Below, in pieces: positions 4,333-47,287 of a stretch of 64,000 bases of DNA. The translations under genes were made by a program, and so were the position numbers. The notes below the pieces were generated by a model. That model was not told the origin of the DNA, searched no databases, and worked only from the letters and a program-made list of their open reading frames with translations. Source of the DNA: an uncultured Gammaproteobacteria bacterium (GTDB lineage: Bacteria > Patescibacteriota > Patescibacteriia > UBA9934). The stretch covers positions 2,338-66,337 of the forward strand of contig CAYHFQ010000002.1 in NCBI GenBank assembly GCA_964355955.1, given 5' to 3'. Position 1 is the first letter of the stretch. Each line of letters opens with the position of its first letter.

Positions 4333-6229
4333 TATGAAATCTCCTTCGCCTTTCGGTACCTTGCTAAACGACGACTTGGGCGTGCTGTCAGACAGCTCGT
4401 CGGACATTGCTATGACGGAAGTAGTTGGTCGTCGTGGCCGCGTCGATAGTGAACCTGTTCGGGCTTTTGTCGGTAATGTCATTCCAGCCAAACGTTACAA
4501 ACTTGGAATTATTTTGACCCTCAGTTTACTCGGATTCTTTTTAGCTCGTGCTGGTTATTTCCAAATCATCCAAGGCGCCAACTATCGTGCCATTGCCGAG
4601 TCGAACCGTGGTCGCACACACATCTTGCCAGCCAAACGTGGCTTGATTACGGATCGGGACGGCGTCATCCTCGCTAAGAATATCCCGTCATTTACACTCA
4701 TCGCCCGACCAGCCGAATTGCCAAAGAAAGAAGTAGCTCGCAATAGTTTGTTTGCGGAGGTAGCTTCTGAGCTTGGTGGCGACGCTTTGGCCTGGACAGC
4801 AGCCTACGAAACTGGTCATGCCGCTTCATCCTTTGAGCTAATGGAGAACGTGCCGTATGAGCAGGCCTTAGCTTTTGCTGTGCATGATAGCGACGTGGTG
4901 GGTATCGACTTGATGCTCGACGCCAAACGGTCTTATGTTACCAACGCCATTCCATCGCTCTCGCATGTCATGGGTTACACTGGCGTCATGAATGCGGAAG
5001 ATTACGCAGCAGAGAAAAAGAATGGCTACCAACCTTACGACAAGATTGGTAAGCAGGGCGTGGAGTCGACGCATGAGGCGGAATTACGTGGTACGAACGG
5101 TTACGAAACGCTCGAGGTCAACGCCCAGGGCAAATACTTGCGCACGGTGGCTAAGCAGGACCCAGTTGATGGCGCCCGTTTGACGTTGTCTATCGACGCC
5201 AACTTGCAGCAGCATATTGAACAGGTCATGGCGGGGAGGCTCAAGGGTACCGTGGCCTCGCGTGGGGCCGTCGTCGTCATGAATCCGAAGAATGGGGAGA
5301 TTCTCGCCTTAGTTTCGTGGCCAGCCTATGACGCCAATCTTTTTACGGATGGCATTAGTCAGACTAATTACGACGCACTTCTCAACGACCCCGATCATCC
5401 GCTCTTCCCACGGGCCACGGCGGGGGAGTACCCCTCGGGCAGTACCATTAAGCCAATGTATGCTGCGGCCGCTTTAACCGAGGGCATCATCACCCCAAGT
5501 ACCACCGTCATCTCAACTGGTGGCTTGCAGATCGGCAACCGCTTCTTTCCCGACTGGCGGCCAGGTGGCCACGGCCTCACTAACGTCTACCACGCCATTG
5601 CGGACAGCGTGAATACTTTTTTCTACATGATCGGCGGTGGCTACGATACGTTTAAAGGCTTGGGTATCGACCGGCTCATGTCCTGGGCGGCCACTTTCGG
5701 CTTCGGAACTGTGAGCGGCCTTGATGTGCCAGGGGAGGGCAACGGTTTTTTGCCAAGCCCCGCTGCAAAACTCGAGGCCACTGGCGAGCCGTGGTACATC
5801 GGCGACACTTACAATGTCTCGATCGGTCAGGGCGACTTCTTAGTGACGCCCGTCCAAATCGCTCGCGCCACTTCCGTCTTTGCTAACGACGGTGTGCTCG
5901 AAACCCCACACCTCGAACTCGGCCTCGACTTGCCAGAGACACGTATTGTCTCAAGCGAAGTCGCCCAAGTCATTAAAGACGCCATGCGCCAAACAGTCAC
6001 CAATGGCTCAGCTAGCTCCATGCAGAGCGTACCTGTCGCTGTGGTCGGTAAAACTGGTACCGCCCAGTGGTCGCACTCTTCACCACCACATTCCTGGTTC
6101 ACCGGTTTCGCGCCGTACGATGATCCAGAGATAACGATTACCACTGTCATTGAAGAAGGCGGCAATGCGGCGCTGGCAATTCCCATCAGCCGGGAGATAT
6201 TAGAATGGTACTTTGCGGACCGCAAATAA
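4322..6229 (+). CDS. mrdA: penicillin-binding protein 2 (elongasome transpeptidase)
   Basis: N-terminal TM anchor, the PBP dimerisation region, and transpeptidase motifs SxxK (SGSTIKP), SxN and KTGTA. Lies within the mreBCD context. Confidence 0.9.
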   Translation: MSASMKSPSPFGTLLNDDLGVLSDSSSDIAMTEVVGRRGRVDSEPVRAFVGNVIPAKRYKLGIILTLSLLGFFLARAGYFQIIQGANYRAIAESNRGRTHILPAKRGLITDRDGVILAKNIPSFTLIARPAELPKKEVARNSLFAEVASELGGDALAWTAAYETGHAASSFELMENVPYEQALAFAVHDSDVVGIDLMLDAKRSYVTNAIPSLSHVMGYTGVMNAEDYAAEKKNGYQPYDKIGKQGVESTHEAELRGTNGYETLEVNAQGKYLRTVAKQDPVDGARLTLSIDANLQQHIEQVMAGRLKGTVASRGAVVVMNPKNGEILALVSWPAYDANLFTDGISQTNYDALLNDPDHPLFPRATAGEYPSGSTIKPMYAAAALTEGIITPSTTVISTGGLQIGNRFFPDWRPGGHGLTNVYHAIADSVNTFFYMIGGGYDTFKGLGIDRLMSWAATFGFGTVSGLDVPGEGNGFLPSPAAKLEATGEPWYIGDTYNVSIGQGDFLVTPVQIARATSVFANDGVLETPHLELGLDLPETRIVSSEVAQVIKDAMRQTVTNGSASSMQSVPVAVVGKTGTAQWSHSSPPHSWFTGFAPYDDPEITITTVIEEGGNAALAIPISREILEWYFADRK

Positions 6230-6252
6230 GCGGGATGATCATTCGCAAATAG

Positions 6253-6272
6253 GCGGGGTTACCATGCCCCGC
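6253..6272 (+). terminator. GC hairpin after mrdA (gcgggg-ttaccat-ccccgc); weak or partial terminator
   Basis: 6-bp GC stem with a 7-nt loop, 24 nt after the mrdA stop. No clear U-tract. Confidence 0.3.
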
Positions 6273-6293
6273 TGAAGTTATCCACGGCTCTCG

Positions 6294-6322
6294 TTGACCA
6301 ACAAAATTACGCATGATAATAC
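6294..6322 (+). promoter_or_regulatory. sigma70-like promoter for the Rhs toxin gene
   Basis: TTGACC, 17-bp spacer, TAATAC. The -10 overlaps the first ATG of the ORF-track ORF (6313), which argues the real start is the ATG at 6346. Confidence 0.45.
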
Positions 6323-6345
6323 TGAAGCAGTTTAAATACTGTCCT

Positions 6346-9300
6346 ATGCGCATTTTGCCATCACGCTGGCTGTTTGGTCTTATCGGTATCATAGGGCTTG
6401 GCTTATTGGCTTTACCATCAGCCACTTTCGCTACAGTCACAGATCAAGACAGCTCGCCGTTTGTGGTCAAAAATCAAATCAAACTCGCACCGGACATGCG
6501 CACCGGTGCGTTTTCGTATACTTACCCCATCACCTTACCTCCTGGCCGTAATGGTCTTCAGCCCAGCCTCGGTCTATCTTACAGTAGCAGTAATAGCGAT
6601 AACGCCAACCTCGCCGGCTACGGCTGGTTGCTGAATCTCCCAACCATCGAACGCATAGCCACCCACGGCACCGATGACCTCTACACTAGTCACGACTTTA
6701 CCTCATCACTTTCCGGCGACCTCGAAGACATTTCTTTAACCGACGCCACGCACGGCACATACGGCGCCAAGGTCGACGATGGTTCCTTCCTCGCTTACGT
6801 CTACAATTCCGACGAGTCGTGGACAGTCACGGACAAGCAGGGCACCATCTACACTTTTGCCGCAGACACCTCAGCTCAAATCGTTAGCAATACCGACACC
6901 ACGCACGTCTTCCGTTGGTACTTAACCGAGATGCGAGACACCAACGATAACTTCATCGCTTACACTTACTCCAAAGACGCTGGCCAAGTTTATCCCTCAT
7001 CTATCACCTACACCGGTCACGGTAGCACCGCTGGCATTTTTGCTGTTAACTTCACTCTGGAGAGCCGCAGCGACGCGGTCACTTCTTTCGCCACTGGTTT
7101 CTCTGTCAAAACCTCTTATCGCATCAGCGCCATCAACGTCACCGAGAATAGCTCCACTATTCGTAATTACGCCTTAGCCTACATCGCTGGTAGCAACGAC
7201 ATTCGTTCACTACTCTCAACTATCACGGAAACCGCCACCGACGAAGCGACCTCATCAATAATTACCAAACCAGCTACTACTTTTGACTATTCTGCCAACA
7301 CGGATTCATGGACGGAAGACACGAGTTTTGGCGGCTTACCAGAACCTATTGCTGGCACTAGTCTTGGCAGCCTCGGCATTTATTTCTTCGACGTCAACGG
7401 CGACGCTTTGCCAGACATGGTGAAGTCGAAAAGTACTACTCGCACTGTTTATATTAACAACGGCGACAATACGTGGACAGAGGACACCAGTATTACCGTA
7501 CCGTTGCAGTTCGCTAATTCTTTAGGAAAGGATACAGGCGTCCGAGTATTTGATTTGAATGGCGATGGCGAACAGGATTTAATCTCTTCACATATTGATT
7601 CTAGCGGCAATGTAGCTTCTGGAATTTATCTAAACAATGGTGACGGTACTGGCTGGACGGAGGATACGACGCTTGCTGTACCAATTGCTTTTACCAACGA
7701 CGGCAGTGGTTTAGATTTTGGTGTGCGCATTATAGATGCAGATGGAGACGGTATGCAGGACTTAGTCTACAGTCGAGATGGCATGACGACGGCAGTTTAT
7801 ATTAATAATGGTGACGGTACCGGCTGGACCGAGGACACTGGTTATGTGGTACCTATACAGTTTGTGACTTCTGGTTTGTACGACATGGGAGTTCGTCAGC
7901 TCGATGTTAATGGGGATGGGTTGCTTGATTTAGTAAAATCTAGATACACCGGCTCTTCATCGGTTATCGACGAAGCGGTCTACATTAATAACGGAAATGG
8001 TACAGGATGGAGCGAAGATACAAATTACTCCGTACCTGTTGCTGTAATTTTAAGTAATTTCGCGGATAACGGTGTTCGCTATCTAGATGTTAATAGAGAC
8101 GGGTTGACCGACATTGTCTACTTCCGTTCGTATTCCGGAACTGATTATAAAGATGTCTACATTAATAACGGAAATGGTACTGGTTGGACAGAAGATGCGT
8201 CCTATCAAGCTCCATTAGCGTATACGATTAACGGTTTTGATGTCGGTGTTCGTGAAGAAGACATCAACGGTGACGGACTGGATGATACTATTCGTTCTCG
8301 TGATATTAGTACTTTACAAGAAAATCTCTACCTCGCCAGTCCCACGTTCAGCGATAAACTTACCACTGTCACCACCAGCACTGGTGCTTCAACTTCCGTC
8401 ACTTACCAACCCTCAATCACAGTGGGTGGCGACCTCTCGTTCCCACTATCCGTTGTTGCGACTGAAACTGTCGACGACGGCCTAGGCCACACTGCCACCA
8501 CTAGCTACGACTTCGCGGATGGCGATTACTACTACGCCAGTGAGTATGACCGCAAGTTCGCTGGCTTCGGTATGGTCACCATCACTGACGCTAGTGGCAA
8601 AGTCACTAAGCGTTATTATCACCAGGGCAACGCCACCAATAGTACCCAGGGCGAAAGTAGCGACGACGTCAGCAAACTCTGGCAAATGTATCGCGAAGAA
8701 AGCTATGACGACGCCAGCCATCTATTCCGCACTGTCATTCATTCGTTCACCAGTGTCGACCTCGGCTATAGTCGAACCTTCGTTTACGAGAACCAAACGC
8801 TTGAACTCCGCTATGACGCGGACAGTGACCACACGGACTTAGCCACAAGCTACACTTATGATACTTCAACTGGTAATCTAACCGAAAAGAAAGAGTGGGG
8901 GAGAGTCACCGGCGTTGACGCTGGCACGTTTACAGATTCTGCCAGTGACACCCGGATCACAGATTACACTTACGCCAGTTTCTCGACCGGTCTGTGTGGC
9001 CTCGTCGACGATGAGCTGGTCAAAAACAACGCTGGCTCTACCGTTCAGGAAACAAAATATTATTACGATAGCTCAAGCCTCGGTACCGCCACGCTCGGCA
9101 ATCTGACGACCGAAGCGCATTGGACAGCTGGCAGTAGCTTCGTTAATACCGCCTATACTTACGACGGCTACGGTTTACTCGCCACTAAAACCGATGCTTT
9201 GAGTAACACCACCACCTTCACACCTGACTCGGCTAATCTCTACACAGCCACCCAGACGAATGCTTTAAGCCAGGCCACGGCTTACACTTACGATTACTCA

Positions 9301-12048
9301 TCGGGCCAAGTCTTAACGACGACGGACTCTAATGGGGGAGTCTTCGCCACTACTTACGACGCGCTTGATCGCCCTCTAACAACTTCTCAACCAGTTATCG
9401 GCAGCAGCGGCTCGGTCACTAGCAAGACTTTCAATTATGACGACTCGACCTTACCGACCATGGTCCACGAGACCGATGCTTATAATAGCTCGACTAATCG
9501 CGAGACCTACGTGTATTCGGACGGCCTAGGTCGCGTCATTCAGCAGCGTGTGGAAGCCGAGGGTACCAGCACGTTCGACATCACCGATACGCTCTATAAC
9601 GAACTCGGCCAGGTCGCTAGTACCACATTGCCTTACGCCTCAACTGGCTCGGCTTACACTACGCCGACCACAGACACGACGCTTTACCAAACTCTCGCTT
9701 ACGACGCCCTCGGCCGCGTCACTGCCTCAACCAACGTGGAAGGCACGTCGAGCAAGTCCTACGAAGATTGGGTCGTCACCGAAACCGATGCTCTCAGTAA
9801 CACCAAGAATTTTGCTTACGACGCTTACGGCAACTTGAGCGTGGTCGTCGAGCACAAGGGGGCTGTCAGCTATACCACAACTTACGTTTGGGACGCACTC
9901 GGTCGCCTGTACAGTTTGACGGATGCCGATGGCGCTGTGCGTGGTTTTAGCTATGACGGCTTGGGTCGACGTCTAACGGCGCAAGACCTACATGTCGCAA
10001 CAGATACCATGTTTGGCGTTTGGACCTACACTTACGACGCTGTAGGCAACCTAGCGATTTCCTATAGCCCGAACGGTATTACTACCACTTACATCTACGA
10101 CGTCCTCAATCGCGTAACCACCGAAGACGCCTCATCAGCCTCCGGCACAGAAATAACTTACACTTACGATAGTTGCACACTTGGCGTTGGTCGCCTCTGC
10201 CAAACCGTAGTCACCGGGGGAGCCACCACCGCTTACACTTACGATGCCCTCGGCCGCACTGCCACTGAAGCAAAAACTATTAGCAGCAACACCTACGCCA
10301 CCAGTTACACTTACGACTTGCAGGGCAATCAAGCCACTATCACCTATCCCGACGGCGCCATCACCACTTTTACTCTCGGCACCGCTGGTCGCGTCAGCCA
10401 AGTCGACTTCACGGACATCGTCAGTTCCGGCAACGCCACTCCAGCTAGCAGCGTGGTCTACGCCCCAAACGGCAAAATCAGCAGCTTCACTAACGGCAAC
10501 GGTGTCACCACCGCCTTCACCTACAACGCCGCTGACCTCTACCGCTTATCCAACCTAGTCAGTACGAGCGGCAGCAATAACATTCAGAATTTTGCTTACA
10601 CCTACGACGCAGCTGGCGACATCAGCCAAATCGCCGACACTTCCAGTCTCTACGCTGCGGACACTATTGCCTACACTTACGACGATCTCTACCGCTTAAC
10701 CGCCGCCACTGCCACCAGCACAGACTCAACACTCGCTTACAGCAAAACCTGGAGCTATGGTGCCACCGGCAACATCTTGGTTGGTGAAGGCCCCTCCCGC
10801 ACCTACGGCGGCACGGACACTGGCAACTACGCCAACCCGCACGCCGTCACGGCCATGGGTACGCGCACTCTCACCTACGACCACAACGGCAATACCACCA
10901 ACGAAGGCATTTGGACTAACACCTGGAACTGGCGGAACCAAATGACGCAGTCGGCAAGGAGTGGTCCCTCAGTCACAGTCACCTACACCTACGACGCCGA
11001 CGGCAACCGTGTCAGCCAAGTCAACGGCTCTCTCACCCTCGTCTACCCGAACGAATATTACTCCTACACCGGCACTACCCACGACCGCCAGATTCCACTC
11101 CCTGGCTACGGCATGGTCGCGACATCAAAGTACAAGGTCTCAACTTCAACATCGACGATCGCTTACCACCATCACGACCACTTGGGCGGTGAACACGTCG
11201 ACACCGACTCCACCGGAGCTACCCTCGAGTACACCATCTACTCGCCCTACGGCAGTATTCAGAAAACCTCTGGCACCTCGGGCTACCTCAACGTCAACAA
11301 ATTCACCGGCAAGCAAGTAGATAAGGACACCGGGTTCTACTACTACGGGGCAAGGTATTGCTCTGCGAATTATGGGCGTTTCCTCAGCGAGGATAATGTG
11401 TTTTTGGCAGTTGGCGACGACAACAGCCACTTACGAGATCCACAAGCACTGAACTCCTATTCGTACGCCAGGAACAACCCACTACGATTCGTCGATCCAG
11501 ATGGCAATTTCTTTAGTGGCTTTGGCGATATCGCCATTCTCGGTATCGACATAGGCTTCTTATTAAGCGATAATAAAGCAGGTGCTGGAATTGGCACAAT
11601 GGCAGCGGATGTGGGGTTCTTGGCTCTCGATACAATTAGCACCATTATTCCTGGTGTGCCTGCGGGTGCTGGAGTAGCAGCACATGGTATAACAGCCACA
11701 ACTAAAGCAGCTGAAGGAGTAATTAGAGCAGGCGAAGCCGCTCGGGTCACCAAAGCGACATTAAACGCAGAGAGGAAATCGGCAGTAAAGAATGCTTGGA
11801 AGGCAGAACGTGAAGCAGTGACTAAAACAGGTACAGGTACTCGACGCTGGAGCGAATCTCAAACTTCTGAATTATTAGGAAAAGGCAAGGTATCCGGCTA
11901 TGAAGGACATCATATTAACAGTGTGAACGGCAGCCCATTATTAGCTGGAATTGCCAATAATATTAAATTTCTGACACGGGATGAGCATTTAGCTGAGCAT
12001 GGTGGTAGTTGGCTTAATAAAACCGTTGGTAAATTACTTAATCGTTAA
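6346..12048 (+). CDS. secreted SpvB / FG-GAP / RHS-repeat polymorphic toxin (TcB-TcC-fusion-like Rhs protein) with a C-terminal GHH-type HNH/EndoVII nuclease tip
   Basis: N-terminal signal peptide (MRILPSRWLFGLIGIIGLGLLALPSATFA). SpvB-type motif FSYTYPITLPPGRNGLQPSLGLSYSS. Six FG-GAP blades (DxNGDGxxD). Many YD/RHS repeats (YTYDALGR...). RHS core (FYYYGARYCSANYGRFLSEDNV ... NNPLRFVDPDGN). Then a Gly/hydrophobic linker and a tip with GYEGHHINSV...FLTRDEHLAEHG. The ORF-track start at 6313 adds 11 aa before the signal peptide. Confidence 0.85.
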   Translation: MRILPSRWLFGLIGIIGLGLLALPSATFATVTDQDSSPFVVKNQIKLAPDMRTGAFSYTYPITLPPGRNGLQPSLGLSYSSSNSDNANLAGYGWLLNLPTIERIATHGTDDLYTSHDFTSSLSGDLEDISLTDATHGTYGAKVDDGSFLAYVYNSDESWTVTDKQGTIYTFAADTSAQIVSNTDTTHVFRWYLTEMRDTNDNFIAYTYSKDAGQVYPSSITYTGHGSTAGIFAVNFTLESRSDAVTSFATGFSVKTSYRISAINVTENSSTIRNYALAYIAGSNDIRSLLSTITETATDEATSSIITKPATTFDYSANTDSWTEDTSFGGLPEPIAGTSLGSLGIYFFDVNGDALPDMVKSKSTTRTVYINNGDNTWTEDTSITVPLQFANSLGKDTGVRVFDLNGDGEQDLISSHIDSSGNVASGIYLNNGDGTGWTEDTTLAVPIAFTNDGSGLDFGVRIIDADGDGMQDLVYSRDGMTTAVYINNGDGTGWTEDTGYVVPIQFVTSGLYDMGVRQLDVNGDGLLDLVKSRYTGSSSVIDEAVYINNGNGTGWSEDTNYSVPVAVILSNFADNGVRYLDVNRDGLTDIVYFRSYSGTDYKDVYINNGNGTGWTEDASYQAPLAYTINGFDVGVREEDINGDGLDDTIRSRDISTLQENLYLASPTFSDKLTTVTTSTGASTSVTYQPSITVGGDLSFPLSVVATETVDDGLGHTATTSYDFADGDYYYASEYDRKFAGFGMVTITDASGKVTKRYYHQGNATNSTQGESSDDVSKLWQMYREESYDDASHLFRTVIHSFTSVDLGYSRTFVYENQTLELRYDADSDHTDLATSYTYDTSTGNLTEKKEWGRVTGVDAGTFTDSASDTRITDYTYASFSTGLCGLVDDELVKNNAGSTVQETKYYYDSSSLGTATLGNLTTEAHWTAGSSFVNTAYTYDGYGLLATKTDALSNTTTFTPDSANLYTATQTNALSQATAYTYDYSSGQVLTTTDSNGGVFATTYDALDRPLTTSQPVIGSSGSVTSKTFNYDDSTLPTMVHETDAYNSSTNRETYVYSDGLGRVIQQRVEAEGTSTFDITDTLYNELGQVASTTLPYASTGSAYTTPTTDTTLYQTLAYDALGRVTASTNVEGTSSKSYEDWVVTETDALSNTKNFAYDAYGNLSVVVEHKGAVSYTTTYVWDALGRLYSLTDADGAVRGFSYDGLGRRLTAQDLHVATDTMFGVWTYTYDAVGNLAISYSPNGITTTYIYDVLNRVTTEDASSASGTEITYTYDSCTLGVGRLCQTVVTGGATTAYTYDALGRTATEAKTISSNTYATSYTYDLQGNQATITYPDGAITTFTLGTAGRVSQVDFTDIVSSGNATPASSVVYAPNGKISSFTNGNGVTTAFTYNAADLYRLSNLVSTSGSNNIQNFAYTYDAAGDISQIADTSSLYAADTIAYTYDDLYRLTAATATSTDSTLAYSKTWSYGATGNILVGEGPSRTYGGTDTGNYANPHAVTAMGTRTLTYDHNGNTTNEGIWTNTWNWRNQMTQSARSGPSVTVTYTYDADGNRVSQVNGSLTLVYPNEYYSYTGTTHDRQIPLPGYGMVATSKYKVSTSTSTIAYHHHDHLGGEHVDTDSTGATLEYTIYSPYGSIQKTSGTSGYLNVNKFTGKQVDKDTGFYYYGARYCSANYGRFLSEDNVFLAVGDDNSHLRDPQALNSYSYARNNPLRFVDPDGNFFSGFGDIAILGIDIGFLLSDNKAGAGIGTMAADVGFLALDTISTIIPGVPAGAGVAAHGITATTKAAEGVIRAGEAARVTKATLNAERKSAVKNAWKAEREAVTKTGTGTRRWSESQTSELLGKGKVSGYEGHHINSVNGSPLLAGIANNIKFLTRDEHLAEHGGSWLNKTVGKLLNR
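7300..8340 (+). repeat. six tandem intragenic FG-GAP (beta-propeller blade) repeats with near-identical nucleotide segments (YINNGDGTGWTEDT)
   Basis: Recurring 'tattaataa(t/c)gg(t/a)ga(c/t)gg...ggctggac(g/c)gag(g/a)aca' DNA. Protein repeats follow the pattern WTEDT...VPxxF...GVRxxDxNGDGxxDLV. Confidence 0.75.
10826..11505 (+). repeat. homology block (RHS core end, NYANPHAV...RFVDPDG) shared with the downstream orphan rhs-CT module
   Basis: About 680 bp aligns colinearly with 12712-13390 at roughly 85-90% nucleotide identity by eye. Protein similarity breaks exactly after DPDGN. Confidence 0.8.
11511..12045 (+). other. C-terminal toxin domain of the Rhs protein: Gly-rich hydrophobic pre-toxin linker plus a GHH-signature HNH/EndoVII-fold nuclease (Tox-GHH-like)
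   Basis: Sequence diverges from the orphan copy right after DPDGN. The GHH motif sits in YEGHHINSVNG, followed by N, H and E (NNIKFLTRDEHLAEHG), consistent with HNH superfamily toxins. The local GC drop is typical of swapped toxin tips. Confidence 0.5.
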
Positions 12049-12052
12049 TAGT

Positions 12053-12652
12053 ATGAATATTCAAGATACGATAATGCCAATTCTAAGAAAAGCTGAAACT
12101 TTAGGTACAGAAAAATTAGATGACGGAACTTTGTTAATTGGCAGAGTTCCGCATATCGCTCCTCTAGCCCGACTCCATATTGTACCGGGTGGTCTTAGAG
12201 AGGAGGGTATTGCTTTGTTGGAGGATCATATTAATAGGAAAATACCTAATAATTATAGAGATTTTTTGCGACAGACAAATGGACTTCACGTATATTCTGA
12301 TGCAATTAGCCTTGATGGATTACGGACTAATTATGCGCGTGACATCGCTGGAGCCTGGCAGCCATTTAGTCTTATTGAGCCTAATACTTATGAACGTCCA
12401 AGAGATGCTAAGGACTCTTATTTATTTATAGGTGGATATGGCTACGACGGATCCTCTCTATTCGTTGATTCCGATTCTGGTAAAGTTTATCGGTGTGCTC
12501 AAAAATATGCATCCGAAATTTTTAACGTCTGGCCTGACTTCTGGACAATGCTAACTTCTGAAGTTGAAAGATTAGATGGGTTGTTCGATGCTGAAGGAAA
12601 GAAGAAATATCCAGATCGGCCAACTACTCCAGAGCCAAATATAAATATATAG
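12053..12652 (+). CDS. SUKH-1 (SMI1/KNR4 family) immunity protein cognate to the Rhs nuclease tip
   Basis: Starts 4 nt after the Rhs stop. SUKH hallmark (IPNNYRDFLRQTNGLHVY, LFVDSDSGKVYRC). It is AT-rich like the toxin tip. The longer ORF-track start (11999) overlaps the Rhs gene and is unlikely. Confidence 0.7.
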   Translation: MNIQDTIMPILRKAETLGTEKLDDGTLLIGRVPHIAPLARLHIVPGGLREEGIALLEDHINRKIPNNYRDFLRQTNGLHVYSDAISLDGLRTNYARDIAGAWQPFSLIEPNTYERPRDAKDSYLFIGGYGYDGSSLFVDSDSGKVYRCAQKYASEIFNVWPDFWTMLTSEVERLDGLFDAEGKKKYPDRPTTPEPNINI

Positions 12653-12711
12653 ATTGTTAATTTTATAAGTTTTTTTATAATTTAATACGGCATTAAATCA
12701 GCTCCTCCCGC

Positions 12712-13390
12712 AACTACGCCAACCCGCACGCCGTCACCACCATGGGTACCCGCACCTTCACCTACGATAATAACGGCAATACCACCAACGAAGGCGTCTG
12801 GACCAACACCTGGAACTGGCGTAACCAAATGACACAATCCACCCGTACCGGCCCCTCCGTCACTGTCACTTACGCCTACGACGCGGACGGCAATCGTGTC
12901 AGCCAAATCAACGGCAGCCTCACCCTCATCTACCCGAACGAATACTACTCCTACACCGGCACCACCCACGATCGTCAGATCCCATTACCTGGTTACGGCA
13001 TGGTCGCGACTTCAAAATACAAAGTTAGCACTTCAACCTCCACCATCGCCTATCACCACCATGATCACTTGGGCGGCGAACACGTCGACACCGACTCCTC
13101 CGGCGCCACCCTCGAGTACACCATCTACTCACCGTACGGCAGTATTCAGAAGACGAGTGGAACAACCGGCTATGTTAACTCGAACAAATTCACTGGCAAG
13201 CAAGTAGACAAGGATACTGGGTTCTATTACTACGGAGCACGTTACTATTCTGCGAATTTTGGTAGGTTCCTAAGCCAAGATAACGTCTTCCTCGCCATCG
13301 GTGTAGATAACGGCATATTAAAAGACTCGCAGGCACTAAATTCCTACTCATACGCCAGGAACAACCCACTACGATTCGTCGATCCAGACG
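12712..13390 (+). repeat. second copy of the RHS-core homology block (partner of 10826-11505)
   Basis: See the partner repeat. It begins 15 nt after an in-frame stop at 12694-12696. Confidence 0.8.
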
Positions 13391-13980
13391 GTAACTCATT
13401 CTGGGATTTCGTAAATCGTGCTGGTAATAGTTTCGGTCGAATTGCTGACTCGATGATCAGAGCCAATAACAGAGTAATTGCTCCAGCAACCAACAGCGCT
13501 TATAATTTCATCACCCTTGGAGCAGGCGACGCCGCTTCTAACATGGGGCGTAACGGGGTAACTGTCGGTGGGTTAGCTCATGTGGGTTATGGGGTTGTGT
13601 ATGGAACTGTCACTACGGCTCTCGCTGCGCTAGATATCGGTGCTGCAGCTGGAGGAGCGGCTGTGAATTTTGGAGTTATGAGCGGTAGAGGCGGTGGTCA
13701 GAATTTGGGAAACGCTTCGGGTAAGTCTGTTAACGGCAGAACAACAATACCTTCTCATTGGACGGTTGAAGAATCTAAGCGTGGGGGAGGGTATATTTAT
13801 ACAAATCCAAACGACACAAGAGAAAATATTAGGCTAATGCCGGGAAACAAAAGCAGTCCCCACACGGTGAGTCAGGCTCCATATATGAGACATCAAGTAA
13901 ACGGAGGCTATCTAGATTCATCTAAAAGAATTAATTCAGATAACGCAGCTACGCACTTTCCAATTAAAACAATCAAATAA
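12742..13980 (+). CDS. orphan rhs-CT module: partial RHS core (no N-terminal shell) fused to a different C-terminal toxin domain of unknown family
   Basis: The first ~215 aa are 85-90% identical to Rhs residues ~1510-1730, including the HHHDHLGGEHVD, FYYYGARY and RFVDPDGN motifs. The in-frame homology (NYANPHAVT) extends upstream of the ATG to 12712 after a stop at 12694. The ~195-aa C-terminus is unique (Gly-rich linker, then HWTVEESKRGGGYIYTNPNDTRENIRLMPGN). Confidence 0.8.
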   Translation: MGTRTFTYDNNGNTTNEGVWTNTWNWRNQMTQSTRTGPSVTVTYAYDADGNRVSQINGSLTLIYPNEYYSYTGTTHDRQIPLPGYGMVATSKYKVSTSTSTIAYHHHDHLGGEHVDTDSSGATLEYTIYSPYGSIQKTSGTTGYVNSNKFTGKQVDKDTGFYYYGARYYSANFGRFLSQDNVFLAIGVDNGILKDSQALNSYSYARNNPLRFVDPDGNSFWDFVNRAGNSFGRIADSMIRANNRVIAPATNSAYNFITLGAGDAASNMGRNGVTVGGLAHVGYGVVYGTVTTALAALDIGAAAGGAAVNFGVMSGRGGGQNLGNASGKSVNGRTTIPSHWTVEESKRGGGYIYTNPNDTRENIRLMPGNKSSPHTVSQAPYMRHQVNGGYLDSSKRINSDNAATHFPIKTIK

Positions 13981-13982
13981 TT

Positions 13983-14348
13983 ATGAACTATATCAGAAAG
14001 CACATTTTCAATTTACTTAATCAGTACCAAGATCTCGCAATGCAACATAAAGAGTGGACCGAAAATTTAACCACTTCATATATAACACCAACGGAATTTA
14101 TCGCCGAATGGTTTGATGATATATTCAACCATGGAGCCGATGAGCTAATTAAGGCGGGTGAGATAAGTATTGAAGAGTGGGAAATTATAGAACCGTTCCA
14201 TGCGTCATTTCGTGCATTCGCAGATGAATACTATAAAAACGAAAATTCAATTCCAGCAGACATGACGACTTATGAGCCTTGGGTAGTAATTGCCAAGACA
14301 GCAGCAGAGACAGTCGAGAAGTTGGAAGATCTGGGTTGGAAGCTATGA
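13983..14348 (+). CDS. candidate immunity protein for the orphan toxin (acidic 121-aa protein)
   Basis: Starts 3 nt after the orphan toxin stop. AT-rich and small, in the position typical of cognate immunity genes. No family recognised. Confidence 0.5.
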   Translation: MNYIRKHIFNLLNQYQDLAMQHKEWTENLTTSYITPTEFIAEWFDDIFNHGADELIKAGEISIEEWEIIEPFHASFRAFADEYYKNENSIPADMTTYEPWVVIAKTAAETVEKLEDLGWKL

Positions 14349-14398
14349 TAAACAATAAAGAACAATTAGAAATTTGTGAGAAATATCAACTACCTTAA

Positions 14399-14686
14399 GT
14401 GGAATCAGCTGAGAATCTAAAAATCGGTATTTCACAAAACGTACGAGAAAGATTGTTATCAATTAATGGTCTTCGTCATAAACAGGAGGGAGATACGACT
14501 GGGTGGTATATCTGGACTGGTGAAGAGTGGACGGAAGATTCCGCATTCCTTGTTCCTGTTCACGTTAAACATATAAATGAATGGAACCCTTTAATCGGCA
14601 AATATCTTGGGCTTCCTCCTGGGACAAGATTCCTTATTACTTCGGAATATGAGGACGTATGGCAAGATCCGTCACTACTAAACTAA
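14399..14686 (+). CDS. hypothetical small protein (possible orphan immunity gene)
   Basis: AT-rich ORF in the immunity array. No motif recognised. Confidence 0.35.
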   Translation: MESAENLKIGISQNVRERLLSINGLRHKQEGDTTGWYIWTGEEWTEDSAFLVPVHVKHINEWNPLIGKYLGLPPGTRFLITSEYEDVWQDPSLLN

Positions 14687-14693
14687 CTTAACT

Positions 14694-15122
14694 ATGAAAA
14701 TTATAAACAAATTAAAACAATGGTGGATGAATCATCAGATAAATATTATGAAGTACACTTGTCCATGTTGTGGGTATATGACTTTCGATGAGGCTCTTGG
14801 TTCAGATGAAATTTGTGATATTTGTTCATGGCACGATGACCTGGTCTCTTATAACCATCCTGACAGGGCTATCGGACCTAACAAAGTCACATTGATACAG
14901 GCACAGGTAAACTATCTTGAATTCGGCATAAGCAATCCTAGCCTAAAAAAATCAAGAGTAAATATCACTAACTACCCAAAGGATAGTTTATGGCGTTTAA
15001 TTGATTTGACTATCGACAAAAATCTTATGAATGGTGGCGGTGAGAGATTTTGGGACCTCTTAATTAAAGAAGTTGGCGAACCCCTACCTAAGTATTACTG
15101 GCTTAGTAATAATGGGAGTTAA
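14694..15122 (+). CDS. Cys-rich CPCC-domain protein (family seen in polymorphic-toxin immunity loci)
   Basis: The YTCPCCGYMTFDE...CDICSWHDD motif matches the CPCC Cys-rich domain. Location is within the immunity array. Confidence 0.55.
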   Translation: MKIINKLKQWWMNHQINIMKYTCPCCGYMTFDEALGSDEICDICSWHDDLVSYNHPDRAIGPNKVTLIQAQVNYLEFGISNPSLKKSRVNITNYPKDSLWRLIDLTIDKNLMNGGGERFWDLLIKEVGEPLPKYYWLSNNGS

Positions 15123-15131
15123 AAAAGTAAT

Positions 15132-15737
15132 ATGGTTAAAAAATCTGTCGAGTCCAGTCTAACCGCTGACAACGAATGCGCAATCTGCCAAACGGGGAGT
15201 ACTGTTGAAAAGTTCGTTGCTCCAGGCATGAAAAGCCAATTAAGTACTAAGCTTTGTTTAGAGTGCAAAGAAAAAGTCAATCAACATTTTTTAGCCGAAA
15301 CACAGGACTCAAATATCGTCAGAGCTATAACCTGGGGAGTTCTTGCGGCTGCAGTTGGTAGTGCTGTTTGGTACTTTGTAGCCATCTGGACGGGTTTAGA
15401 AATAGGCTATCTCGCTATTGGCTTAGGACTTTGGATCGGTTTAGCGGTTCATTTCGGATCGGGTAAAAAGAAGGGCCGTCGATTACAAATAATCAGTTTA
15501 ATTCTGACTTTCTTAGCTATTATAATTGCGAAGAAACTAATCTTTGATTATTATCTCAACGATTATCTTCAGGGTCATTTGGCAGATTTTCAGGATTTTG
15601 TAGTCGGTCAAAAGGTGAGTGTATCATTTTTTGCGGTTGAATTTTGGCAAAGTGTCGCGTCCATCAAGGGTCTACTAATTAGTCTGCTCGGACTTGTTGT
15701 GGCCTTTGTCATTTGCGCACCAAGAAAACTTAAATAA
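15132..15737 (+). CDS. membrane protein with an N-terminal zinc-ribbon-like CxxC...CxxC and 4-5 TM helices
   Basis: ECAICQTG...CLECKEKV, then hydrophobic helices. Last gene of the AT-rich array. Confidence 0.45.
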   Translation: MVKKSVESSLTADNECAICQTGSTVEKFVAPGMKSQLSTKLCLECKEKVNQHFLAETQDSNIVRAITWGVLAAAVGSAVWYFVAIWTGLEIGYLAIGLGLWIGLAVHFGSGKKKGRRLQIISLILTFLAIIIAKKLIFDYYLNDYLQGHLADFQDFVVGQKVSVSFFAVEFWQSVASIKGLLISLLGLVVAFVICAPRKLK

Positions 15738-15744
15738 TAGTAGC

Positions 15745-15772
15745 TTGACTCCCTCACCTCATCTGCTATCAT
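15745..15772 (+). promoter_or_regulatory. candidate promoter for greA
   Basis: TTGACT, 16-bp spacer, TATCAT, about 78 nt upstream of the greA ATG. Confidence 0.35.
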
Positions 15773-15791
15773 AGAACTATCAAACAAATCC

Positions 15792-15822
15792 GTTCCGCTT
15801 TTAGCGGAGCGGCTTTCGTTCT
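15792..15822 (+). terminator. possible terminator of the immunity array (gttccgct-ttt-agcggagc, then a T-rich run)
   Basis: 8-bp stem with a 3-nt loop followed by ggctttcgttct. Confidence 0.3.
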
Positions 15823-15849
15823 ACCAAGAGAAATAGTTAAAACAGCAGT

Positions 15850-16314
15850 ATGTCCAATCCCAACGTTTGTTACATTTCAGCTAGCGGCCTCGTCGACATG
15901 AAGGCTGAGTTGATTGATCGTATTAAAAATATTCGCCCAATTATTGCCGGTAAGATTGGTGATGCTAAGGAACTTGGTGATATCTCGGAAAATTTTGAAT
16001 ATCACGACGCTAAAGAACAGCAAGCCCAAAACGAAATGCGCATTGTCGACTTGACGCACATGATTTCCACGGCCGTGATTGTGGACAATAAGGTGGGCGG
16101 TATGGTCGGCTTGGGCTCTAAGTTCACCGTCAAAGCGGGTGCCGTCGAGAAGACTTACCAATTGGTCGGCGAGAGCGAGGCCAACCCCATGGAAGCCAAA
16201 ATCAGCAATGTTTCGCCACTCGGCGCTGCCTTCATGAACAAGGCACTCGGCGAGAAAGTGAGCGTGACCACCCCGGGCGGCGAAGTCACTTACGAGATAA
16301 TCGCTATCGCTTAG
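15850..16314 (+). CDS. greA: transcription elongation factor GreA
   Basis: GDISENFEYHDAKEQQ (GreA coiled-coil signature) and C-terminal FKBP-like domain. 154 aa. Confidence 0.88.
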   Translation: MSNPNVCYISASGLVDMKAELIDRIKNIRPIIAGKIGDAKELGDISENFEYHDAKEQQAQNEMRIVDLTHMISTAVIVDNKVGGMVGLGSKFTVKAGAVEKTYQLVGESEANPMEAKISNVSPLGAAFMNKALGEKVSVTTPGGEVTYEIIAIA

Positions 16315-16333
16315 CCACAAATCTCGGCTTTAC

Positions 16334-16380
16334 AGAAGCACTTCTTTCCCGTAAAATTGGGCGAGAAGTGCTTTTGTATA
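16334..16380 (+). terminator. intrinsic terminator after greA
   Basis: 10-bp stem (aagcacttct / agaagtgctt) with an 18-nt loop, followed by ttttgtat. Confidence 0.55.
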
Positions 16381-16431
16381 GCTAGCGTTTTGCTTATGTC
16401 TGGAGATGCCAAATTAGGAAATGAAGGATTA

Positions 16432-17916
16432 ATGCGTCGAGACCGTTTGGCTAGCTTGCGTGAGCAGGGGATTGAGCCATATCCCGCCGAACTCGAGCGG
16501 ACTCATGTTATTGCCGACGTGGTCGGTCAGTTTGCGGAGCTTGAAGCCGCTGGCGCCTCAGTCACCATCGTCGGCCGTGTTAAGGCCTTGCGTCAAATGG
16601 GTGGCCTCACGTTTATTCGCCTCGTCGACGGCACGGGGGACATGCAGGTGGTCCTCAAAGAAGATCAAGTTGGTGCCGAACAATATCAACTCTTTATCAA
16701 TCACGCCGACGTGGGCGACTTCTTCGGTTTTACTGGCGGCATGTACGTCACCCAAAAAGGCGAACGCTCCGTGCTCGCCGGCAACTTTACCATTCTCGCT
16801 AAAGCACTCTCACCTTTGCCAGACAAGTGGAGCGGTTTGCAAGACGTTGAATTGCGCTATCGCCACCGCGAGCTCGATCTCATTAGCAATCCGGAAGTGC
16901 GTAAGCGTTTTGAGACTCGGAGTAAAATCGTTTCCACCATGCGTCGTTTCCTTGACGAGCGTGGCTTCATGGAAGTCGAAACACCTATTTTGCAACCAAT
17001 CCCCGGCGGCGCCAGTGCTCGTCCCTTCATTACTCACCACAACGCACTCGACGCTGATCTCTATTTACGCATCGCGCCTGAACTTTACCTCAAGCGTCTC
17101 GTTGTCGGCGGCTTCGAAAAGATTTACGAAATTGGCCGCTGCTTCCGCAACGAAGGCATCGACTACGCCCACAATCCAGAATTCACCATGATGGAGCTCT
17201 ACTGGGCCTACGCTGACAAAAACTCTTTCGTCGCCATGCTCGAAGAGCTCGTGGTCACCATTGTTAACGCCAGTTTTGGCGGCCTAGTCGTTCCATACGG
17301 CGAGGGCAGTATTGACTTCACCGCACCATGGAAGAAAGTCACTTTCCGTCAAGCCATCATCGACGCTTGCGGCATCGATATCGACACTATTCACTCGTCG
17401 GCCGAATTATTCGTCGCCATCAAAGCTGCTAAACTAAAAATCGACTTCAAAGGCTGCGTTGGCATGGGCGAGTTCTACGATCAGCTCTACAAGAAAACGG
17501 CTCGCGCCGCTATTACTCAGCCAACCTGGGTTTTTGACTATCCAATCGAACTCAAGCCATTAGCTAAAGCCAATCCAGCCGATCCAACCAAGAGTTCATC
17601 TGTTCAGTTGGTCGTGCAAGGCGCGGAAATTATCAACGCTTACTATTACGAACTCAACGACCCACTCGACCAGCGTGCCCGCTTTGAAGAACAACAGTCA
17701 CTCCGCGAACAGGGCAGTGAGGAAGCTCAGTGGATGGACGAGGACTTCCTGTCAGCCCTGGAACACGCCATGCCACCTACCTCTGGCGTCGGCATCGGTA
17801 TTGACCGCTTGGTCGCCTTCTTAACCAACTCACCAAGCCTTAAAGAAGTCATTCTTTTTCCAACCTTGAAACCAATCCAGCCAGCAGTCGTAAAAAATGA
17901 CGAGGCGGCCGTATGA
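16432..17916 (+). CDS. lysS: lysyl-tRNA synthetase, class II
   Basis: N-terminal anticodon-binding OB fold (FIRLVDGTG...QVVL) and class II motifs (FRNEGI, GIGIDRL). Start chosen at MRRDRL with the gaaggat RBS; the upstream ORF-track start overlaps the greA terminator. Confidence 0.9.
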   Translation: MRRDRLASLREQGIEPYPAELERTHVIADVVGQFAELEAAGASVTIVGRVKALRQMGGLTFIRLVDGTGDMQVVLKEDQVGAEQYQLFINHADVGDFFGFTGGMYVTQKGERSVLAGNFTILAKALSPLPDKWSGLQDVELRYRHRELDLISNPEVRKRFETRSKIVSTMRRFLDERGFMEVETPILQPIPGGASARPFITHHNALDADLYLRIAPELYLKRLVVGGFEKIYEIGRCFRNEGIDYAHNPEFTMMELYWAYADKNSFVAMLEELVVTIVNASFGGLVVPYGEGSIDFTAPWKKVTFRQAIIDACGIDIDTIHSSAELFVAIKAAKLKIDFKGCVGMGEFYDQLYKKTARAAITQPTWVFDYPIELKPLAKANPADPTKSSSVQLVVQGAEIINAYYYELNDPLDQRARFEEQQSLREQGSEEAQWMDEDFLSALEHAMPPTSGVGIGIDRLVAFLTNSPSLKEVILFPTLKPIQPAVVKNDEAAV

Positions 17917-18341
17917 AAAAAGTAATGGTCTTCGGCTCGTTCGACGTGCTGCACGAGGGTCACCACCACTTCCTAAAAGACGCTAAGGCGCTAGGTGACT
18001 ATCTAGTAGTCGCTCTAGCCTCGGACGCCAGCATCCGTTTCCTCAAAGAACATGAACCCAAGACTAGCTTCGACGTCAGAGCGGCGGCCTTAAGCCTCAG
18101 TGAATACGTCGACGAAGTAGTGGCAGGGGACGAGCTAGACGACGATGGGAATGACGCTTTCGGCACCTGGCAAGTAATAGACAAATTAAAACCAGACATC
18201 ATCGCCTGCGGTTACGACCAGCAGGCTATAAACGAACTTCTCACGCAACGTTTTGCGACACTAGATTCTCCGCAGATTGTTAGTCTGCCACCGTTTGAAC
18301 CAACAATTTACAAATCCTCACTGCTCAATTCCCTTATATGA
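17913..18341 (+). CDS. cytidylyltransferase-family protein (TagD / glycerol-3-phosphate cytidylyltransferase-like)
   Basis: MKKVMVFGSFDVLHEGHHHFLKDAKALGDYLVVALASD closely resembles the TagD N-terminus with its HxGH motif. Confidence 0.6.
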   Translation: MKKVMVFGSFDVLHEGHHHFLKDAKALGDYLVVALASDASIRFLKEHEPKTSFDVRAAALSLSEYVDEVVAGDELDDDGNDAFGTWQVIDKLKPDIIACGYDQQAINELLTQRFATLDSPQIVSLPPFEPTIYKSSLLNSLI

Positions 18342-19603
18342 TCGACTTAAAAATTCTGCGCGAAACGCCAAACGTAATCAGAGAAGCCGCTAAGGCTAAG
18401 AATGTCGAGATCGATATTGACCGCATTCTCGACCTGGACCGTAAAGTCCGCGGCTTGAAGGGCGAAATGGAAAGTATCGCGGCGCAAAAAAATGACTCCG
18501 GCAAGCGTATTGCTAAGGCTACGCCCGAGGAGCGCAAGGCCATGATTGAGGAAATGCGTCCACTAGACGCCCGCGCCGAAAATTTGCAAGCCGAATTCGC
18601 GCCGCTCGCCGAAGAACTCGAAGAGTTGCTGCACAAAATCCCTAATCCATCTTTGCCAGACGTGCGGATTGGCCACAGCGATACCGAGAACGTCGCTATC
18701 CGCTTGGTTGGCGAACCACGTAAATTTGCTTTCCCTGTTAAGGATCACTTGGAACTCGGCGAAGCGCTCGGCATTATCGACACCGTGCGGGCTGCTAAAG
18801 TCAGCGGCGCTCGCTTCACCTACTTGGTAGGGGACGGAGCCCTCCTTGAAATGGCTCTCGTCGACTACGCTGTTCGCACCGCCATCAAACACGGCTTCAC
18901 GCCAGTTACTGTGCCACATCTCGTCAGCGCCAAAGCTATGCGCGCTATGGGTTATTTGGAGCACGGTGGTCACGACGAAATCTATTATCTAGCCAAAGAC
19001 AACCTTTACCTCATCGGTACGTCGGAACAAGCCATCGGCCCCATGCACACGGATGAGATTCTCGACATCGACGCTGCTCCTAAGCGTTACGTCGGCATTT
19101 CACCGTGCTATCGCCGCGAGTCGGGCACCTACGGCAAGGACACCAAGGGTATCATTCGTTTGCACCAATTCACTAAAGTAGAAATGTTTAGTTTCTGTAA
19201 GCCGGAAGATTCCGCAGCGCAACACGAAATGATGCTGGTGATCGAAGAAGAGCTCATGCAGGGCCTTGGTTTGCCATACCACGTTCTCGACATCGTCTCG
19301 GGCGACCTTGGATTACCTGCCGCCAAAAAGTGGGACATCGAAGCCTGGTTCCCATCCCAAGAGCGTTACCGCGAAACTCATTCCACCAGTAACTGCACAG
19401 ACTTCCAAGCTCGCCGCCTCAATACTCGTTATCGTACAGAGGAGGGGATTAACTTCGTTCACACCGTCAACGGCACTGCCTTCTCCGGCCGACCAATCGC
19501 CGCTATCCTCGAAAACTTCCAGGAAGCCGACGGCAGCGTGCGCATTCCGGAAGTTTTGCAAGCCTACATGGGCAAGAGTGTCATCACCCCAAGAACAGTC
19601 TAG
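18338..19603 (+). CDS. serS: seryl-tRNA synthetase
   Basis: N-terminal coiled-coil arm (MIDLKILRE...) and class II core (FRxE, TAFSGRPIAAILE). Confidence 0.9.
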   Translation: MIDLKILRETPNVIREAAKAKNVEIDIDRILDLDRKVRGLKGEMESIAAQKNDSGKRIAKATPEERKAMIEEMRPLDARAENLQAEFAPLAEELEELLHKIPNPSLPDVRIGHSDTENVAIRLVGEPRKFAFPVKDHLELGEALGIIDTVRAAKVSGARFTYLVGDGALLEMALVDYAVRTAIKHGFTPVTVPHLVSAKAMRAMGYLEHGGHDEIYYLAKDNLYLIGTSEQAIGPMHTDEILDIDAAPKRYVGISPCYRRESGTYGKDTKGIIRLHQFTKVEMFSFCKPEDSAAQHEMMLVIEEELMQGLGLPYHVLDIVSGDLGLPAAKKWDIEAWFPSQERYRETHSTSNCTDFQARRLNTRYRTEEGINFVHTVNGTAFSGRPIAAILENFQEADGSVRIPEVLQAYMGKSVITPRTV

Positions 19604-41044: not shown

Positions 41045-41073
41045 ATGCGTTTATTATAACACGAATATTTTAT

Positions 41074-44691: not shown

Positions 44692-44700
44692 ATAGCCCCA

Positions 44701-46185: not shown

Positions 46186-46192
46186 AATGAAA

Positions 46193-47191: not shown

Positions 47192-47258
47192 ATCTCAATC
47201 CTCAATATTAACCAGAAAATTAGCCCTTATTTACCGCTCAGTTAAATATATTGTACTA

Positions 47259-47287
47259 AAAATGGACCCCTAATTCAAGCTAAATAA
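47259..47287 (-). promoter_or_regulatory. near-consensus sigma70 promoter reading into RhuM, DUF2779, the two giant proteins and the ABC exporter
   Basis: On the minus strand: TTGAAT, 17-bp spacer, TACAAT. A GAGGA RBS lies 6 nt before the RhuM ATG. Confidence 0.6.

Follow-up and report, generated by a model that had tools for sequence, protein, structure and literature searches.

The Rhs proteins of enterobacteria (E. coli, Salmonella, Dickeya, Serratia) share a shell of YD/RHS repeats that closes at a DPxG core end, a variable C-terminal region (CT), and an adjacent immunity gene. Downstream lie 5'-truncated core fragments with alternative CT/immunity pairs, base composition breaks at the junction of core and CT, and the cassettes are shuffled between relatives. 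WapA of Bacillus subtilis, a monoderm, is a Sec-dependent YD-repeat CT toxin, also with an adjacent immunity gene, and the TcB-TcC part of the Tc toxins combines SpvB, an FG-GAP propeller, and an RHS shell. All of these traits, Sec export as a prediction, recur in a 64,000-nt stretch of DNA (contig CAYHFQ010000002.1, positions 2,338 to 66,337; assembly GCA_964355955.1), referred to below as the window. Its nearest genome relatives are metagenome-assembled genomes labeled Candidatus Uhrbacteria (Patescibacteria). Between mrdA, which encodes PBP2, and greA, the window carries an island of ~8.9 to 9.5 kb, and we are fairly confident that this is an Rhs polymorphic-toxin island whose 3' end is the region analyzed here. 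In this reading the region comprises a GHH toxin with its SUKH immunity gene, an orphan toxin paired with a 121-aa immunity protein, a broken Imm33-like gene, an orphan CPCC gene, and, as a separate matter, an accessory gene of 201 aa.

Every structural feature fits the established Rhs polymorphic-toxin paradigm, the general scheme of which is laid out in PMC3482391, and current understanding is not overturned. What, then, is new? First, the host lineage: the textbook Rhs set of shell, swappable cassettes, orphan modules, and leftover immunity genes is also present in Candidatus Uhrbacteria, with cassette shuffling documented at one chromosomal hot spot, mrdA-greA. Second, one toxin/immunity family pair is unclassified, and its clean genomic definition makes it directly testable. 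Third, two links emerge, one tying the uncharacterized CPCC Pfam family to a solved toxin/immunity complex (PDB 8EY4) and the other flagging a family of Zn-ribbon, transmembrane (TM) proteins as a likely partner of HtpX. There are also differences from the enterobacterial systems. No PAAR, VgrG, or type VI secretion system (T6SS) context is seen in the window, and the protein opens with a predicted Sec-type signal, behind which come SpvB and FG-GAP. The genome belongs to a patescibacterium and is ~1.1 Mb in size. A long, conserved Gly/Ala-rich linker separates the DPDGN motif from the toxin tail, and a second swap junction follows this linker. Unlike for Tc and WapA, neither a TcA-like partner nor a cell-wall-binding domain was identified in the window.

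The main Rhs protein begins with a hydrophobic, signal-like segment (residues 14 to 43) and matches the Pfam families RHS_repeat (PF05593, E = 2.5e-26), SpvB (4.4e-16), FG-GAP_3 (6e-18), and Tox-GHH (2.9e-19), as well as DUF6443; its match to the TIGR03696 model, Rhs_assc_core, is only partial. Tox-GHH (PF15636) scores 72.7 bits against a cut-off of 25, and the signatures given for this family in PMC3482391, G[HQ]H, NIxF, and [DE]H, can be read in the translation as GHH, NIKF, and DEH (...GYEGHHINS...NNIKFLTRDEHLAEHGG). By profile and motif alike, the CT toxin of the main gene is a predicted Tox-GHH nuclease domain of the HNH/EndoVII type. The gene behind it belongs to SUKH-1 (SMI1/KNR4), with a match to PF09346 at E = 9e-10 and 39.7 bits (cut-off, 25.4). 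Where does this gene start? Its longest open reading frame (ORF) runs from 11999, but the likely start is the ATG at 12053, 4 nt past the Rhs stop, because the homologue in the related locus L007 starts directly after the GHH stop there, with MPSMNIQ. (L-numbers, L001 to L105, denote loci or contigs of relatives and homologues; coordinates without one are those of the window.) The order of GHH and then SUKH is kept in L007, and ratios of nonsynonymous to synonymous substitution (dN/dS) of 0.07 for GHH and 0.17 for SUKH indicate purifying selection on both. The pairing of GHH with SUKH on RHS proteins was tabulated by Zhang et al. 2012 (PMC3482391), who also list TcdB/TcaC as a route for Tox-GHH. 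With both profiles above their cut-offs and the immunity gene following the toxin as it does there, the pair is textbook, and SUKH-1 is the predicted cognate immunity protein of the GHH toxin; new is the host, at the level of phylum.

Downstream of this pair stands a second, 5'-truncated copy of the Rhs core. It matches TIGR03696 at E = 5.6e-21, is 82 to 86% identical to the main gene at the DNA level, and the repeat ends exactly at DPDGN. The homology extends 11 codons 5' of the ATG at 12742, with which the ORF opens, and an in-frame stop lies five codons beyond its end; this ATG is thus a conserved internal Met of the core. The Gly/Ala-rich linker that follows (~115 aa) is nearly identical to the linker of the main Rhs in L007 (L007 positions 4766 to ~5120), while the toxin tails behind the shared linker, that of the window orphan and that of the L007 main CT, are unrelated. 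A near-identical linker leading into unrelated tails points to a second recombination junction within the CT, and the linker itself is possibly a functional domain, perhaps one for translocation.

The base composition of the region follows this modular layout. Against a G+C content (GC) of 0.484 for the whole window, likelihood segmentation of 4322-19603 found four change points (segments in Table 1). Since the linkers behind DPDGN are rich in Gly and Ala, GC at third codon positions (GC3) is more telling than GC. In the ORF of the main Rhs, the best-fitting GC3 change point falls at nt 11560, ~50 nt past DPDGN, with values of 0.64 before and 0.29 after it (log-likelihood gain, 35.6). The GC drop near DPDGN is real and well beyond chance, and a preliminary description of this DNA had been right both to report it and to begin the low-GC block at 11511, directly behind the motif. 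That description had the block embedded in a GC-rich Rhs gene and staying low through 15737, and here it needs correcting. The low-GC DNA is attached to the Rhs gene at its 3' end, and it falls into two blocks; the orphan core copy between them, together with its Gly/Ala-rich linker, returns to a host-like GC of ~0.51. The Rhs gene is GC-rich only in a relative sense (0.52 to 0.54 in the shell versus the window average), and further low-GC tracts lie at 38 to 52 kb. Every cassette gene has a foreign-like GC3 of 0.27 to 0.40, compared to 0.58 to 0.65 in the shell, greA, and lysS. The fall in GC3 sets in ~70 to 80 codons ahead of DPDGN in both Rhs copies, as expected if cassette exchange recombines within the conserved core end.

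How does the same site look in relatives? A LysS scan of species-representative genomes found loci in which the synteny mreD-PBP2-greA-lysS-cytidylyltransferase-serS is conserved. At 18 loci both PBP2 and greA are present with no Rhs between them; the gap between the two genes is 84 to 353 nt in 16 of these and ~1.2 kb in two (L015 and L029). The closest empty site, L008 (PBP2 93% and LysS 94% identical), loses homology to the window at 6218 and regains it at 15736, so that 9.5 kb is missing. In L087 (PBP2 90%), homology is lost at 6234 and picks up again at 15129, and the only gene between PBP2 and greA is a homologue of the 201-aa gene. With L007 and L008, homology resumes at 15736-15743. 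L007 (LysS 96%) has the Rhs gene, with a shell 83% identical to that of the window, and a different order of cassettes: its main CT consists of the linker described above, an unrelated toxin tail, and then a 124-aa gene; the GHH and SUKH module (82% and 66% amino acid identity to the window) is found further downstream, in an orphan position; behind it comes a third core fragment, which bears still another CT; and the array ends in three small genes, of which one is a DUF695 member and one is weakly Imm40-like. L009 (LysS 84%) retains only remnants. The proposal that cassettes accrete and are exchanged at the Rhs 3' end is well served by L007, in which the module that is terminal on the main Rhs of the window is an orphan and the main Rhs bears another tail. 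The presence/absence differences anticipated among relatives were also found, the island being missing from L008, from L087 apart from the 201-aa homologue, and from 17 more distant loci. The homology break at the core end, the GC3 break, and the reshuffling in L007 together support cassette exchange.

An alternative would attribute the low GC to weak selection and AT-biased mutation acting on small, poorly expressed, long-resident genes, with no horizontal exchange. Small-genome Patescibacteria are often AT-biased, one gene of the array is already decaying (an in-frame TAA, described below), and there are several other low-GC tracts in the window. We nevertheless consider this explanation very unlikely, given that composition and homology break together at the core/CT junction, that the same modules occupy different positions in L007, that the island is absent from L008 and L087, and that GHH and SUKH are under the purifying selection described above.

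Two further observations concern the site itself. The ~1.2-kb insertions at L015 (8256-9456) and L029 (8221-9446), in two Uhrbacteria-like genomes that are more distantly related, are low in GC and encode a multi-TM protein of ~380 to 400 aa; perhaps the PBP2-greA site is, more generally, a hot spot for genes of accessory membrane proteins. In addition, the contigs of L002, L003, L005, and L006, which come from different samples or assemblies, begin inside the island, at 13359, 14490, 14739, and 15203, one of them at the end of the repeated core. These contig ends may be repeat-induced assembly breaks, a coverage artifact, or strain variation.

The orphan CT ends in a toxin tail that matched nothing in Pfam, NCBIfam, or PDB sequences by phmmer and profile searches. 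A word-indexed homologue search with the 94-aa toxin tail returned no match, not even the query itself, and a single-sequence AlphaFold model of the tail was unusable (predicted local distance difference test score [pLDDT], 39). Homologous tails do occur in L088, L089, and L105. They define a family of ~80 to 95 aa with the consensus ...GKxINGxxTIPxxW...GGYxYxNP...E.xRLMPG...PYxRHQ...YLD...THFxI, and the invariant K, E, R, R-H-Q, D, and T-H-F positions of the four sequences prompt the speculation that the tail could be an enzyme, possibly a nuclease. Starting 3 nt past the stop of this tail is the 121-aa gene. Its product has only two homologues (P0004 and P0005) in an index of 5.8 billion proteins, and both are encoded directly behind a homologous toxin tail, in L088 and L089; L088 has a further, more divergent copy in tandem (573-953). 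A fourth locus, L105, which was found by a metagenome scan, shows the end of an Rhs core, the linker, a homologous tail, and a gene of the 121-aa family, so that tail and family are adjacent in four of four loci. The immunity family, of ~120 aa, has conserved EWT.N and WFDD motifs; it has no Pfam match, its profile had none in the PDB, and against NCBIfam the window protein gave a weak full-length match to the SCO4402 family (E = 0.031). Tail and immunity families have so far been seen only on Rhs-type C termini in metagenomic contigs. Because the pairing recurs in other loci and the gene starts 3 nt past the toxin stop, the 121-aa gene is the predicted cognate immunity gene of the orphan toxin and not itself an orphan.

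This last point bears on a broader proposal. The preliminary description, whose sizes and positions for the four small genes (121, 95, 142, and 201 aa) hold, had taken all four to be orphan immunity genes with no partner toxin in the window. Such a reading appears natural in that four small, low-GC genes of the same direction stand close together behind the orphan toxin; two of them match immunity-type families, and tblastn detected homologues of none of the four in the 24 loci L007 to L030. As a reading of all four it is quite unlikely, however. For the 121-aa gene it is refuted by the partner toxin immediately upstream and by three other loci in which the pair recurs. A nonsense codon has left the 95-aa ORF as a remnant, and the associations of the 201-aa family are with HtpX rather than toxins; one relative has a homologue at the site without Rhs.

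The 95-aa ORF deserves a closer look. As annotated from a GTG, it covers only positions 16-103 of PF24719, the Imm33-like family (115 bits, 1.6e-33). Its missing N terminus is encoded in frame upstream, from the ATG at 14345, and when the intervening TAA is read through as X the match becomes full length (1-103/103, 129 bits). Since TAA is the stop codon of neighboring genes as well, the Imm33-like gene is a nonsense-interrupted one; the stop is also present in L001, L002, and L004. An N-terminally truncated product may still be made from the GTG at 14399. Of the idea that this ORF is a retained immunity gene, then, the immunity family stands and the intact gene does not. No toxin matching it as a partner was found in the window.

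The 142-aa protein does contain the CPCC motif that had been reported for it (YTCPCCGY...CDICSWHDD), and it matches Cys_rich_CPCC (PF14206) at 1e-24 and 86.5 bits (cut-off, 24.5). It also matches two PDB chains, 8EY3_A (3e-10) and 8EY4_I (6e-10), with which all four cysteines and the W[HE]DD motif line up. What are these proteins? The CPCC protein of 8EY4 is 100% identical to the product of a CPCC gene on E. coli plasmid pO113, a gene whose first base is also the final one of a 1661-aa, VENN-containing ORF of the CdiA type. Chain A of 8EY4 corresponds to the last 88 residues of that CdiA-CT (2e-57) and chain I is the CPCC protein encoded next to it, so that in the solved complex CPCC is the immunity partner. 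(This CdiA-CPCC pair lies at 31-5201 of L093, NC_007365.1; the CdiA ORF has no entry in the PLSDB gene table.) In pO113 the CPCC protein is bound to the toxin domain and encoded directly after it. The window protein differs in being 142 aa long with an extra C-terminal region, in being ~40% identical, and in having no adjacent or detectable cognate toxin: the window holds no homologue of the 8EY4_A toxin, and directly upstream is the Imm33-like remnant, not a toxin gene. With no such toxin, the gene is an orphan at best. With moderate confidence, we regard the 142-aa CPCC protein as an orphan immunity candidate, the role first proposed for it and one that the 8EY4 complex supports. Zhang et al. 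2012 (PMC3482391) do not list CPCC as an immunity family, and a literature search on CPCC, PF14206, and 8EY3/8EY4 found no relevant paper. One candidate link was rejected: the main toxin tail of L007, with its GHAYDKH...EF motif, was considered as a member of the pO113 CdiA-CT family, which would have made the CPCC gene a shield against the toxin of a sister species, and the BLASTP E value was 1.3.

Unrelated small genes of immunity families without matching toxins, here the Imm33-like and CPCC genes, resemble the heterogeneous polyimmunity arrays of PMC3482391; unlike in those arrays, only two such genes are present, and one is inactivated. The two families also co-occur in Ralstonia solanacearum (L091, megaplasmid CP052127.1, 4314-7923), where DUF2247, CPCC, and Imm33-like genes belong to a run of small ORFs. 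The run lies between an IS5 transposase and a filamentous-hemagglutinin/ShlB pair, a two-partner-secretion locus. A longer polyimmunity-like array is seen in L088 (573-3325), where the toxin tail is followed by two tandem 121-aa paralogues, a 127-aa ORF, a 329-aa TM protein, and a Barstar-domain gene; the N-terminal region of the 329-aa protein is shared with a 138-aa ORF in L089. Comparable arrays of orphan immunity genes are the acquired interbacterial defense clusters of Bacteroidales.

The last of the small genes encodes the 201-aa protein, in which the CxxC...CxxC pair and the subsequent hydrophobic helices noted earlier are indeed present. A word-indexed search recovered only the protein itself and that of L087, but when 1.84 billion representatives were searched exhaustively with HMMER, 1944 relatives came up at E <= 1e-3, 136 of them at E <= 1e-10, so that the family holds at least 1944 clusters at 50% identity. 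Its members share the CxxC...CxxC ribbon, an ETxNPN linker, four TM helices, and a GSGxKRGxxLQ loop; the window protein is modeled by AlphaFold at a pLDDT of 90, and no Pfam or NCBIfam model covers the membrane part of the family. What do the neighbors of these genes suggest? In six of the seven distant homologues whose contigs were fetched, the gene lies directly behind a Peptidase_M48/HtpX gene, with anything from a 14-nt overlap to a 13-nt gap, and in the four M48-TM pairs measured the composition of the TM gene matches that of its M48 neighbor. (Pairs of an HtpX-like M48 gene with a ~200-aa Zn-ribbon/four-TM gene are located at L096 1751-3212, L102 191-1673, L103 110-1338, L104 4126-5621, and L098 2-971.) The seventh homologue sits between khpA and a GTPase gene, and none of the seven has a toxin neighbor. 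The family may be an undescribed partner of HtpX. The window itself contains no M48 gene. Between the window and L087, the 201-aa gene has a dN/dS of 0.14 and a dS like that of the flanking genes, which argues for a functional gene that has long been resident at the site. It is probably an accessory copy of the HtpX-partner family, anciently transferred and now at the edge of the hot spot, and it is probably not part of the toxin/immunity system. The preliminary view of it as an immunity gene thus gives way: the protein matches no described immunity family, its relatives lack toxin neighbors, and it stands without Rhs in L087. The same description had named conserved housekeeping genes among the small ORFs as an outcome that would tell against it; of the four, this gene alone comes close, as a member of a widespread, housekeeping-type family.

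Several observations weigh against our reading of the region as a whole. (i) L001 to L006 are 99.98 to 100% identical where they overlap the island and may come from the same samples; they give no strain-level polymorphism and do not independently confirm the TAA in the Imm33-like gene. (ii) The label "toxin" for the orphan tail rests on its position and conserved pairing, no known family having been matched. (iii) CPCC genes occur in five other plasmid contexts without a toxin neighbor, so CPCC proteins are not necessarily immunity proteins in every case, and the C-terminal extension of ~55 aa in the 142-aa protein is lacking in the solved proteins of 65 to 70 aa. (iv) The 201-aa gene has a GC3 of 0.36 versus 0.58 to 0.61 in its flanks (0.38 versus 0.47 to 0.51 for the L087 copy), and it is absent from L007 and L008. 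Such foreign composition and absence mark it as accessory, and an exapted protective role is possible.

This fourth point would also suit a different account of the 201-aa gene, in which a protein recruited from the HtpX-partner family serves as immunity against a membrane-targeting (pore-forming) toxin. The gene is the last of the array, it looks foreign by GC3 in both carrier genomes, and its dN/dS resembles that of SUKH; multi-TM immunity proteins are known for pore-forming colicins and for T6SS effectors. The idea strikes us as unlikely. No membrane-targeting toxin is found in the window or beside any 201-aa homologue, the coupling of six of the seven distant homologues to Peptidase_M48 is translational, the L087 homologue stands alone between PBP2 and greA, and a dS that matches the flanks fits long residence at the site.

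How might the system work? Knowledge of Rhs, WapA, and Tc toxins suggests the following scheme, of which the DPDGN motif alone is seen in the sequence as regards autoproteolysis and delivery. The Rhs protein would be exported via Sec by its N-terminal signal-like segment, with the SpvB/FG-GAP/RHS shell encapsulating the C-terminal toxin. Aspartyl autoproteolysis at the DPDGN core end would free the toxin, and the GHH nuclease would be delivered into neighboring cells while SUKH-1 shields the producer. By recombining with the main gene, the orphan core would allow the spare toxin/immunity pair to take the place of the expressed one. Toxins of other strains would be countered by the CPCC gene and, before its interruption, by the Imm33-like gene. 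Apart from this scheme, we read the 201-aa gene as a displaced member of the M48/HtpX-partner family, separate from immunity. It is quite possible, though we would stop short of calling it probable, that the locus holds two undescribed families (the orphan toxin tail with its 121-aa immunity protein, and the Zn-ribbon/four-TM HtpX partner) together with a Sec-exported, Tc-cocoon-like Rhs that might serve as a weapon against rival epibionts or the host cell.

Table 1. Features of the mrdA-greA region and its surroundings (window coordinates; GC3 unless marked GC)
Feature	Coordinates	Strand	GC3 or GC	Remarks
PBP2/mrdA	4322-6229	+		
Main Rhs polymorphic toxin	6313-12048	+	0.64 (shell)	1911 aa; signal-like segment, SpvB, FG-GAP, RHS repeats, core, linker, Tox-GHH
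DPDGN core end, main Rhs	11494-11508	+		
Gly-rich linker, main Rhs	11509-11760	+	0.36	
Tox-GHH HNH nuclease domain (predicted)	~11761-12045	+	0.28	
SUKH-1 (SMI1/KNR4) immunity gene (predicted)	12053-12652	+	0.27	PF09346; 217-aa ORF from 11999, 199 aa counted from ATG 12053
AT-rich spacer	12653-12709	+	GC ~0.22	57 nt
Promoter-like TTGTTA-16-TATAAT	12654-12681	+		
In-frame stop upstream of orphan	12694-12696	+		
5'-truncated orphan Rhs core copy	12710-13395	+	0.65 (core range 0.65-0.74)	Homologous to main gene 10823-11508
412-aa ORF	12742-13980	+		
DPDGN of orphan	13381-13395	+		
Orphan CT	13396-13980	+		
Orphan linker	13396-13743	+	0.40	
Orphan toxin tail (putative)	13744-13980	+	0.30	~79 aa
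121-aa ORF, predicted cognate immunity gene	13983-14348	+		Unnamed family
Imm33-like gene	14345-14686	+		113 codons; PF24719; start overlaps 121-aa stop (ATGA)
In-frame TAA	14396-14398	+		Codon 18; interrupts Imm33-like gene
95-aa ORF	14399-14686	+		GTG start; tail of Imm33-like gene
142-aa ORF, CPCC-domain protein	14694-15122	+		PF14206; orphan immunity candidate
201-aa ORF, membrane protein	15132-15737	+		N-terminal Zn ribbon, four TM helices; edge of variable site
Four small ORFs (121, 95, 142, 201 aa)			0.30-0.39	
Terminator-like hairpin	15790-15812	+		Inside conserved 112-nt greA leader; marks right edge of variable site
greA	Start 15850	+	0.61	
lysS	Start 16357	+	0.58	
Cytidylyltransferase gene, serS	17913-19603	+		
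GC segment	4322-11392		GC 0.524	
GC segment	11393-12698		GC 0.414	
GC segment	12699-13880		GC 0.514	
GC segment	13881-16037		GC 0.387	
GC segment	16038-19603		GC 0.527	

The stretch 6313-16314 is 100% identical, over the length compared, to one ENA metagenome contig. The window lacks tRNAs, a search of 6000-16500 reported no inverted repeats, and no obvious transposase-sized ORF at the island borders was seen in the ORF list; a classical integrative element is therefore not indicated. PADLOC matched nothing meaningful, and Rfam gave no match over 6000-16500.

Two further features of the window concern base composition. The FG-GAP repeat part of the Rhs gene (7400-8400) has a GC of 0.44 and a GC3 of 0.40 and consists of diverged tandem units of ~171 to 183 nt. 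A second low-GC tract, at 37322-51781 on the minus strand, encodes two paralogous proteins of ~1200 aa with C-terminal NAGPA phosphodiester-glycosidase domains, along with DUF2779, RhuM, Schlafen-group-3-like helicase, Fic/DOC, and NYN genes, and looks like an accessory or defense island.

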